From the sequence record MZ065353.1: a stretch of DNA of 64,000 nt; one strand, written 5' to 3'. The position numbers were made by a program, and so were the translations under genes. This document shows, one piece after another, positions 52,805 through 54,143 of the stretch (within the stretch, counting starts at the first letter, position 1; each line of letters begins with the position of its first letter). The notes under the pieces were generated by a model. That model had not been told where the DNA came from. It saw only the letters and a list, made by a program, of their open reading frames with translations, and did no database searches. This DNA is from Escherichia virus KFS-EC3.

Positions 52805-53259
52805 TGGAATTTAAAGACTTTTCAACGGGTCTTTATGTAGCAGCTAAGTTTTCAGAATTAACACTTGATGCGCTGGAAGAACTCCAGCGCTCTTTACGTG
52901 TTCCTAATCCAGTTCCTAGAGAAAAAATTCATTCGACCATATGTTATTCAAGAGTAAATGTTCCGTATGTTCCATCAAGCGGAAGTTTTGAAGTAGCTTC
53001 TTCTGGACATTTAGAAGTATGGAAAACACAAGATGGATCGACTCTTGTACTTGTGCTAGATTCTGAATATCTGCGCTGCCGACACATGTATGCGCGGGCA
53101 CTAGGTGCTACACATGATTTTGATGATTACACACCGCATATAACATTGTCTTATAATGTTGGGCCCTTATCATTTAGCGGTGATGTACAAATTCCGGTCG
53201 TATTAGATCGTGAATACAAAGAGCCTCTTAAACTCGATTGGGCAGATGATTTAAAATAA
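52804..53259 (+). CDS. 57B: gp57B
   Basis: 151 aa; position after 57A. Confidence 0.8.
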
Positions 53260-53271
53260 TTTCACAAAGTT

Positions 53272-53301
53272 GTTTACATGCTGATGAGGTAGTGATACTA
53301 T
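53272..53301 (+). promoter_or_regulatory. early promoter module, copy 1 (TTCACAAAGTTGTTTACA...GTAGTGATACTATTA)
   Basis: GTTTAC at 53272-53277; -10-like GATACT/TACTAT at 53294-53301. Confidence 0.6.
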
Positions 53302-53331
53302 TATCTCATCAAAATTAATTAGGAAAATAAA

Positions 53332-53589
53332 ATGAAAACTTTCAAAGAGTTTGCTACAAAAACCACTATCACTGAATCTTCTCACGGTATGGAAGTAAAG
53401 CTTGGAATGGCTTTAGCTGAAGCTGAGCGTCTTTTCTCTCGTATTAAAGAACTTGCTGCTGCAGTCGATCCTTCATCTTTTAAAGGAGACCAAACTAAAG
53501 TTAAAGCACTTTTAGCGTTATGCTCCGATGCAGGAGAAATTGCTAAAAATGGTTCTAAGATGAAGAAACGATTAGAAGATTTAAAATAA
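53332..53589 (+). CDS. internal-protein-like small protein with capsid targeting sequence (85 aa)
   Basis: N-terminus MKTFKEFATKTTITE|S has the IP-type leader ending in an (L/I)xE protease site; early promoter upstream. Confidence 0.65.
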   Translation: MKTFKEFATKTTITESSHGMEVKLGMALAEAERLFSRIKELAAAVDPSSFKGDQTKVKALLALCSDAGEIAKNGSKMKKRLEDLK

Positions 53590-53601
53590 TTTCACAAAGT
53601 T

Positions 53602-53631
53602 GTTTACACAGGGTTTTAGTAGTGATACTAT
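53602..53631 (+). promoter_or_regulatory. early promoter module, copy 2
   Basis: Same 18-mer TTCACAAAGTTGTTTACA as copy 1; GTTTAC at 53602-53607; GTAGTGATACTATTA at 53619-53633. Confidence 0.6.
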
Positions 53632-53665
53632 TACCCTATCAAAACAAAATCAAATGGAAATCAAA

Positions 53666-53899
53666 ATGAAAACTTTCAAAGAGTTTATCGCTGAATCTTC
53701 TGATGTAAAAGTTGAGTTTATTTACACTGGCAAGAAAGATAAAATGGGTGAAATGCCTTATGGAGTTCTTCGTGATGCATTAGATAATTTCGGTCAACTC
53801 GCCGCAGAAGATTACGGTGATAAAATTGTTGTTACTGGTCCTGCTGCAGTTATTGAAAAATGGGCAGCAGAAAATAAATCAATTTTTCGTAAAAAATAA
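53666..53899 (+). CDS. internal-protein-like small protein with capsid targeting sequence (77 aa)
   Basis: MKTFKEFIAE|S leader (IAE site). The track ORF at 53600 is extended upstream through the promoter. Confidence 0.6.
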   Translation: MKTFKEFIAESSDVKVEFIYTGKKDKMGEMPYGVLRDALDNFGQLAAEDYGDKIVVTGPAAVIEKWAAENKSIFRKK

Positions 53900-53929
53900 G
53901 TTTACTTTTAGATGGGGTAGTGATACTAT
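53900..53929 (+). promoter_or_regulatory. early promoter module, copy 3 (partial upstream half)
   Basis: GTTTAC at 53900-53905; GTAGTGATACTATTATCTCATCAA repeated as in copy 1. Confidence 0.55.
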
Positions 53930-53957
53930 TATCTCATCAACTACTGAGGAGAATAAA

Positions 53958-54143
53958 ATGAAACGTTGTGAATTAATTCGAAATGTTGCTATTGCAATTT
54001 CTGCTTCTGCTTTTAGTTTTTCAATGTTTGTTGGATTTATATGCGGATTATTGACTACAGCAGAAAATGTTTTTTCACTTGTAGTAGCATTTTTAATTGG
54101 TTTAATTGCTATCGTTATGGATAAAATTTCTAAAGGTGAATAG
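53958..54143 (+). CDS. small hydrophobic (membrane) protein, 61 aa
   Basis: MKRCELIRNVAIAISASAFSFSMFVGFICGLLTT... has two hydrophobic segments; ribosome-binding site GAGGAG upstream. Confidence 0.5.
   Translation: MKRCELIRNVAIAISASAFSFSMFVGFICGLLTTAENVFSLVVAFLIGLIAIVMDKISKGE

Follow-up and report, generated by a model that had tools for sequence, protein, structure and literature searches.

Repeated early-promoter modules and the tandem Ip5/Ip6 internal-protein cassettes of Escherichia virus KFS-EC3

The ip genes, the leader of their products and repeated promoter elements at the polymorphic internal-protein (IP) loci were reportedly described by Repoila, Tetart, Bouet & Krisch (1994, EMBO J 13:4181), and Ip5 and Ip6 are known from T6, T2, RB15, RB70 and PST. 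Later work placed the promoter elements among the PeSL-like (promoter-early stem-loop) elements that serve gene shuffling (Arbiol 2010; Comeau 2014). As reported in PMC2839356, the 1994 study saw PeSL-like elements, with T4 early promoters and weaker AT-rich stems, at the two variable IP loci of T-even phages. The stem-loop of a PeSL element often overlaps with the -10 box and attenuates transcription; attenuation and mini-circles have been shown in RB49/phi1 (Arbiol 2010, PMC2839356). PST was sequenced by Comeau 2014 (PMC4122927), who listed its PeSLs and IP differences. T4 IPI is a packaged, processed protein (PMC3012670), T4 Ip1, Ip2 and Ip3 are inhibitors of GmrSD enzymes, each of a different one, and many ip genes have been found via their signal sequence (Silas et al. 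2025, PMC12373910). Here, a locus of this type was analyzed in Escherichia virus KFS-EC3 (sequence record MZ065353.1), within a window of 64,000 nucleotides that comprises the whole stretch studied. The repeated promoter modules found in it, each placed before a small gene, are real, but they are the already known Ip5/Ip6 cassette array of T6-type phages, a textbook case and no new kind of element.

The window is assigned by sequence to Tequatrovirus, the T4/T6-like phages. Its region 52800-54200 matches 772 phage records, the best being vB_Eco_Solly (99.4%), Ge15, GiZh, PST and T6, and its genes follow the T4 order in reverse. Four proteins match entries of Escherichia virus KFS-EC3 exactly. 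The locus very probably corresponds to the hyperplastic locus on the ipI side in a T6-type Tequatrovirus, in which Ip5 and Ip6 form two tandem cassettes, and contains the following features.

53244-53314, plus strand: module copy 1, with the 57B tail and the A-rich TTTCACAAAGTT block, -35 box TTTACA at 53273-53278, TG-extended -10 box TACTAT at 53296-53301, hairpin at 53282-53311
53332-53589, plus strand: Ip5 (ipV), 85 amino acids
53574-53644, plus strand: module copy 2, with the same blocks as copy 1, -35 box at 53603-53608, -10 box at 53626-53631, hairpin arms AGGGT/ACCCT at 53610-53637
53666-53899, plus strand: Ip6 (ipVI), 77 amino acids
53900-53942, plus strand: module copy 3 (partial), TTTACT at 53901-53906, -10 box at 53924-53929, hybrid hairpin GATGGGG/TCTCATC at 53911-53938
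53322-53352 and 53656-53686, plus strand: repeated 31-nt block with the ribosome-binding site (RBS) and the first seven leader codons, 94% identical
53367-53382 and 53686-53701, plus strand: repeated 16-nt block with the cleavage-site codons, 94% identical

The original prediction had proposed a search of phage protein databases, which identified both products. Ip5 matches PHROG 3499 'internal head protein' (phrog_3499, 1e-49) and is an exact member of the UniRef cluster named 'Ip5', which holds the T6 and RB70 proteins Q38630_BPT6 and Q38378_BPR70. Ip6 matches PHROG 8111 'internal virion protein' (phrog_8111, 6e-51), and both carry the leader motif. The gene pair is named ipV and ipVI in the PST and GiZh records (GenBank KF208315, KT184311). 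Homologues of Ip5 and Ip6 were found in Tequatrovirus only, with 5 and 11 clusters, respectively, among 5.8 billion sequences.

A repeat search revealed a 71-nt unit in four in-register copies: 53244-53314 as the reference, 53574-53644 (83%), 53872-53942 (69%) and 57789-57859 (61%). A repeat had been predicted at 53251 and 53581 that takes in the 3' end of the preceding gene with its stop codon (DLK-stop), and it was recovered at 53244 and 53574, where copies 1 and 2 reach into the coding ends of 57B (ADDLK-stop) and Ip5 (LEDLK-stop). The third copy coincides with the partial one expected at about 53893. The diverged copy expected at 57806 is present, but it belongs to a separate sub-family of T4 early promoters that is spread over the genome. 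The promoter part of the repeat recurs once more, at 58154-58189. The 19-mer TTTCACAAAGTTGTTTACA occurs exactly at 53260 and 53590 and with two mismatches at 57805 (0.06 expected by chance), and the 15-mer GTAGTGATACTATTA exactly at 53289, 53619 and 53917 (0.18 expected by chance). The modules match the T4 early-promoter pattern, which consists of GTTTAC(A/T), a spacer of 17 +/- 1 nt, TAnnnT, often a TG extension, and an A-rich upstream block. In copies 1 and 2 the sigma-70 register is TTTACA-17 nt-TACTAT with TG at -15/-14 (53273-53301, 53603-53631), and in copy 3 it is TTTACT-17-TACTAT (53901-53929). The spacer of 17 nt in copies 1-3 agrees with the predicted 16-18 nt between a GTTTAC -35 and a GATACT/TACTAT -10. 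As had also been predicted, each of these copies precedes a small gene, encoding 85, 77 and 61 amino acids. The proposal that the modules drive internal-protein-like genes is confirmed for copies 1 and 2 with Ip5 and Ip6, but not for copy 3, which lacks the upstream TTTCACAAAGTT block and drives tRNA.4, a gene for a non-IP membrane protein.

Such repeats could represent only strong T4 early-promoter consensus that is kept by selection for strength, in which case they would be no recombination substrate and the tandem IP genes would be independent. Much of the repeat is indeed generic T4 early-promoter consensus found also at non-IP genes, which counts against its being an exchange module. The sequence TTTCACAAA(G/A)(T/C)TGTTTACA precedes many unrelated T4 early genes (70696, 55384, 41706, 27080, 11851), and the TTTCACAAAGTT block is common to other T4 early promoters as well. 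The copy at 57806 is of the other sub-family, and its TGGTACTATACAACTATCAAC-type sequence recurs at four T4 promoters. However, in the Ip5/Ip6 array the identity continues past the promoter, on one side into the upstream last codons and stop (DLK-stop) and on the other into the leader codons. The contents of the corresponding slot in other phages bear on the same question. The slot, which is the place of ipI in T4 and one of two hyperplastic IP loci (the other lies between e and denV), is bounded by two conserved genes.

52804-53259, plus strand: gene 57B, the Acb1 anti-CBASS phosphodiesterase (Pfam PF23474 Acb1, 2.6e-60; synteny with T4, T6, GiZh and PST), the left border, whose last codons DDLK-stop belong to repeat copy 1
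53958-54143, plus strand: tRNA.4, a 61-residue predicted membrane protein (phrog_1692; synteny), the right border, not an internal protein

Between these borders, six different gene arrays were found among the compared phages.

T4: ipI
RB9: Ip5-ipI
RB32: Ip5-Ip9-Ip7
T2: Ip5 and an Ip7-like gene
RB18: Ip6 alone
The window, T6, PST and GiZh: Ip5-Ip6

In 251 records the unique part of Ip5 is complete, and in 221 that of Ip6; a further 200 or so records share no more of the Ip5 query than its first 36-46 nt, which are the RBS and leader. For a comparison of the modules themselves, 35 copies were taken from nine phages and from IMG/VR contigs. Three types of 5' arm, A (CTGATGAGG), B (GGGTTTTAG) and C (TTTTAGATGGGG), two types of 3' arm, a ((C/T)CTCATC) and b (CCCTATC), and three types of 5' untranslated region (UTR) combine in 7 ways round an invariant -10 core. 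The 5' half of a module is linked to the gene before it and the 3' half to the gene after it. This distribution places crossovers in the -10 core and the -35 block. In RB18 the 57B tail is joined directly to a B half, as expected if a crossover in the -35 block removed Ip5, and in the RB32 record itself Ip9 and Ip7 are annotated as flanked by a '43 bp direct repeat'. In the IMG/VR contig L054 (IMGVR_UViG_2706796299_000001), at about position 59 on the minus strand, the promoter module before an IP-like gene contains a tandem duplication of GATACTATTACCTCATCAA, which looks like a scar of slippage or unequal crossover in the -10 core.

Explanation of the repeats by promoter strength has to contend with this reassortment of module halves between phages, with the Ip7-like gene that occurs behind A, B and C 5' halves, with cassettes whose presence or absence is bounded precisely by the conserved blocks, with gain and loss breakpoints that fall inside these blocks in the 35 modules, and with the tandem scar inside the L054 module. 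It is therefore given only a slim chance. Cassettes have been swapped, gained and lost among related phages at the conserved blocks, namely the gene tail with the -35 box (about 31 nt), the -10 core (15 nt) and the leader (31 + 16 nt). Differences between arrays and mosaic module halves among phages thus bear out the original prediction that repeated modules serve as a substrate for shuffling. T4 recombines readily at microhomologies of 6-10 bp, and in experimental evolution clones lost ipIII by deletions of this kind (PMC9391042).

Because 57B is Acb1, the slot sits in an anti-defence neighbourhood. The cassettes for the putatively injected proteins directly adjoin this anti-CBASS gene, which carries the label 'RNA ligase' or 'hypothetical' in many records.

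The leaders of both proteins were compared with those of T4. Ip5 begins with a long leader of the IPI type, MKTFKEFATKTTITE/S, with the cleavage motif I-T-E15/S, whereas Ip6 has the 10-residue capsid-targeting sequence (CTS) MKTFKEFIAE/S with the motif I-A-E10/S. The T4 counterparts are MKTFKEFTSTTTPVSTITE/A for IPI, which starts MKTFKEFTSTTT..ITE, and MKTYQEFIAE/A for IPII and IPIII. Both proteins show the CTS form MK(T/S)(Y/F)x(E/Q)F(I/L/x)xE and a gp21-type motif (L/I)-x-E within the first 10-20 residues, so that the MKTFKEF...(I)xE leaders named in the original prediction do match the N-termini of T4 IPI, IPII and IPIII. The solved IPI* chain (PDB 2JUB) starts right after ITE19, which fixes the meaning of the (I)xE motif. 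An all-against-all BLASTP comparison of the mature domains of nine IPs gave no mutual similarity (all E > 0.07). This indicates that the leader alone is common to the IPs.

In Pfam and in a PDB sequence search no match was obtained for Ip5 or Ip6. The AlphaFold2 model of Ip5 is a plain two-helix hairpin of moderate confidence, with a predicted local distance difference test (pLDDT) of 71. That of Ip6 is a small alpha/beta fold (pLDDT 81.7; one of five models confident), for which the best Foldseek hits in the PDB were generic ferredoxin-like folds (E = 0.07), with 2JUB outside the top 50. By position, leader and analogy with T4 Ip1-3, the likeliest role of Ip5 and Ip6 is to inhibit, once injected, a first-line defence such as restriction of the GmrSD type; the target would probably be a modification-dependent nuclease.

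Ip5 and Ip6 could also be ordinary cytoplasmic early proteins that are neither packaged nor injected, their leader-like N-terminus being a vestige carried along with the promoter/RBS module. Consistent with this, the only promoter directly upstream of either gene is an early one, with no late consensus nearby, and a literature search found no virion proteomics for the two proteins. Moreover, T4 IPIII made in the cytoplasm of the host is functional even without its CTS (PMC9391042). However, the same module precedes T4 ipI, and IPI is packaged and processed (2JUB; PMC3012670). The leader and its I-x-E site are kept in all Ip5 and Ip6 homologues, even in an Ip5 variant with a leader of 10 residues (MQTYQTF-ITE/S), which argues for selection on the leader, and this is the only part common to IPs whose mature domains are unrelated. 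A purely cytoplasmic role is thus very improbable, and packaging of both proteins is the preferred reading.

Beyond the promoter boxes, the modules contain a hairpin that, like the published status of the array (Repoila 1994, PeSL papers), was absent from the original prediction. Each -10 box of copies 1-3 sits in the top of such a hairpin. Stability was assessed by per-sequence fold z-scores with a random-window control in place of a consensus-structure or pair-count covariation test, because the arm types fold in different registers, with centres 3 nt apart. Folded as RNA, copies 1, 2 and 3 reach -14.8 kcal/mol (z -4.5), -14.6 kcal/mol (z -3.9) and -12.8 kcal/mol (z -2.6). The strongest hairpin in the window belongs to the promoter at 58154 (-20.0 kcal/mol, z -6.8), with 13 bp as folded and the core GGCTCAT/ATGAGCC. 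This hairpin, at 58154-58202, precedes a 176-residue open reading frame (ORF, 58210-58740) that stands in place of T4 e.7 (111 residues) and PST ORF130 and is another replacement at a promoter-hairpin junction. The arms vary but stay complementary, as in TGATGAGG/(C/T)CTCATCA, (T/C)AGGGT/ACCCTA and GATAGGG/CCCTATC. Another arm pair, GGTATGAG/CTCATACC, occurs in other T4-like contigs, so that at least four arm pairs are found round one core. Among the other promoters of the window, 3758 has a clear hairpin (z -3.2) and 62188 a weak one (z -1.4), and 57817 and 58712 have none. In positions 1-76500 of T4, 10 of the 27 promoters of the form GTTTAC-N17-TAnnnT reach z <= -2.8, versus 3.3% of 598 random 49-mers (binomial p ~9e-9). 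The T4 promoters with a -10 hairpin include those of ipII, ipIII, denV, dexA and motB. The -10 hairpins are not special to IP genes.

The inverted repeat might act as DNA, either as a cruciform or hairpin that targets recombination, for example through endonuclease VII cutting or mini-circles, or by modulating promoter opening. Mini-circles between neighbouring PeSLs have been shown and a possible targeted recombinase discussed (Arbiol 2010, PMC2839356), the crossovers fall in the core, which is also the tip of the hairpin, and copy 1, copy 2 and the 58154 copy still fold as DNA (z -2.7, -2.6 and -5.9). On the other hand, several stems use G.U (G.T) pairs and therefore fold clearly better as RNA; copy 3 has an RNA z of -2.6 versus a DNA z of -0.3, at which it is not stable. 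Viable phages retain hybrid modules whose stems are poor, and T4 recombines at short homologies without special structure (PMC9391042). Action at the DNA level is thus unlikely. The hairpin is most likely the stem-loop part of a PeSL-like element and would act on read-through RNA as attenuator, insulator or stabiliser. Masking of the RBS, as in T4 gene e, was considered as well and is unlikely, since the 3' arm ends 10-20 nt before the Shine-Dalgarno (SD) sequence.

In the preferred reading, a cassette opens within the -10 core of a T4 early promoter, runs through the 5' UTR and RBS, the common capsid-targeting leader and an unrelated cargo domain, and closes with the A-rich block and the -35 box of the next promoter. 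By homology to T4 IPI, IPII and IPIII, each gene would be transcribed from its own promoter by host sigma-70 RNA polymerase, and read-through from upstream promoters would add transcripts later in infection. The leader would carry the protein into the prohead core and be cut off after (I)xE by the gp21 protease. The mature small protein would then be injected with the DNA and block a first-line defence of the host, the most probable target being a type IV restriction enzyme of the GmrSD family.

Several observations weigh against parts of this scheme. Ip5 and Ip6 have no sequence match to IPI* or any solved structure and the Ip6 model has no fold match, so that the anti-restriction role is argued from analogy only. 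T2 and T6 are restricted by both GmrSD enzymes tested, ECOR21 and ECOR17 (PMC12373910). As T6 carries Ip5-Ip6 and is nevertheless restricted, these two enzymes are not the targets. Directly 5' of Ip5 and Ip6 no late-promoter consensus was found, the nearest TATAAATA on the plus strand being at 52199, inside gene 1. Synthesis during head assembly would thus need read-through or continued use of the early promoters. With regard to the hairpin, 8 of the 35 modules have mismatched arms and weak hairpins, indicating that the structure is favoured but not indispensable. A role as classical intrinsic terminator is also unlikely, as no U-tract follows the stems; a consensus terminator scan of the window does not list the module hairpins.

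Outside the slot, the window contains two further genes with leaders of this kind, a diverged promoter copy and, upstream of 57B, gene 1.

51849-52562: gene 1, followed by 57A
57175-57648, plus strand: ORF of 157 residues with the CTS-like leader MKSYAQFLNE/AVLNE/A; late-promoter consensus TATAAATA at 57127
57789-57859, plus strand: diverged promoter copy before e.8, of the TGGTACTATACAACTATCAAC sub-family of T4 early promoters, no hairpin (fold z +0.9)
62272-62745, plus strand: IpIV, 157 residues, leader MKTYQEFITE/A, at the second IP locus, equal to IpIV of PST and T2

IpIV comes right after gene e, ipIII and ipII being absent from the interval, and its early promoter at 62188 is the one with the weak hairpin round the -10 box. 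The ORF at 57175 is part of a 559-nt unit that has a copy of the rnaC terminator hairpin at each end (57094-57129, 57653-57688). T4, T6 and PST have one terminator copy and lack the gene, which is present in GiZh without annotation and occurs in about 448 phage records. Among 40 of the 216 members of its protein cluster, all 21 named entries read 'hypothetical' or 'uncharacterized', and the protein has no match in Pfam. The leader makes the product a candidate for an overlooked internal protein, encoded away from the two classical IP loci. A joint reading of these observations is put forward tentatively and is somewhat doubtful as a whole. According to it, the -10 hairpin would be no by-product but a selected RNA element acting on read-through transcripts as insulator, attenuator or stabiliser in about 40% of the early promoters of the T4 type. 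In combination with the 15-nt -10 core it would make a preferred crossover point for integron-style IP cassettes, and the 157-residue gene at 57175 would encode an overlooked internal protein at a third site, between duplicated rnaC terminators.

Beyond tRNA.4 follow tRNA.3, tRNA.2 and a group of eight tRNA genes interrupted by a segB-like GIY-YIG gene, and 3' of the tRNA cluster the rnaC region, e.8, e.6-e.2, nudE and e, before the second internal-protein locus at 62272. The segB-like homing endonuclease gene (56036-56701) lies between tRNA-Met (55923-55994) and tRNA-Arg (56705-56781), as it does in T4, T6 and PST. GiZh is without it and has extra tRNAs (Tyr, Asn) in its place, so that the tRNA cluster is polymorphic as well.

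Host immunity encounters the internal proteins before any other phage molecule. As T4 Ip1-3 each disarm a different GmrSD enzyme, the content of the slot helps to set host range. Ip5 and Ip6 are ready candidates for inhibitors of defences yet to be identified, which is relevant to phage therapy and defence research. The mechanism of cassette exchange matters for phage genome evolution and has been described in principle since 1994-2014. Two by-products of the analysis may be worth a short follow-up, namely the generality and RNA character of the -10 hairpin and the CTS-like gene at 57175-57648.

The closest known relatives are the Ip5/Ip6 loci of T6-type phages, which have the same genes, slot, leader and modules as the window. 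The Ip6 locus is 98-99% identical to those of PST, GiZh and T6, and the ipV-ipVI locus of PST is 99% identical. PST and T6 differ from the window in the absence of the CTS-like gene at 57175 and otherwise in nothing of substance. T4 ipI occupies the same slot behind a near-identical module (A/a/u1 type) and encodes the same type of long leader, MKTFKEF...ITE. In contrast, the mature domain of IPI* is unrelated in sequence, and no 2JUB-like fold was found with the model of Ip6. The T4 genes e, soc, 49 and I-TevI reportedly have promoter-in-hairpin control (McPheeters et al. 1986 and later work), in which the hairpin hides the ribosome-binding site. They share with the window modules the promoter inside a hairpin, which only transcripts started upstream contain as a whole. 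In those genes the RBS is hidden, whereas in the window the 3' arm ends before the SD sequence. The PeSLs of RB49/phi1, nt-1/KVP40 and PST/T4 have the same order of parts, with an upstream stop, an A/T-rich block, an early promoter, a stem-loop over the -10 box and an SD sequence and start. They cluster in hyperplastic regions and coincide with indels and replacements, both of which are true of the window modules. The RB49 family, however, has a TTGACA -35 and polyG/polyC stems, whereas the window modules have GTTTAC and AT-richer stems and extend into a common coding leader. The T-even IP elements have been classed as analogues, not homologues, of the RB49 PeSLs (Arbiol et al., PMC2839356). 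As they lack sequence homology to these, the window modules are filed as PeSL-like elements and not as members of the RB49 family.

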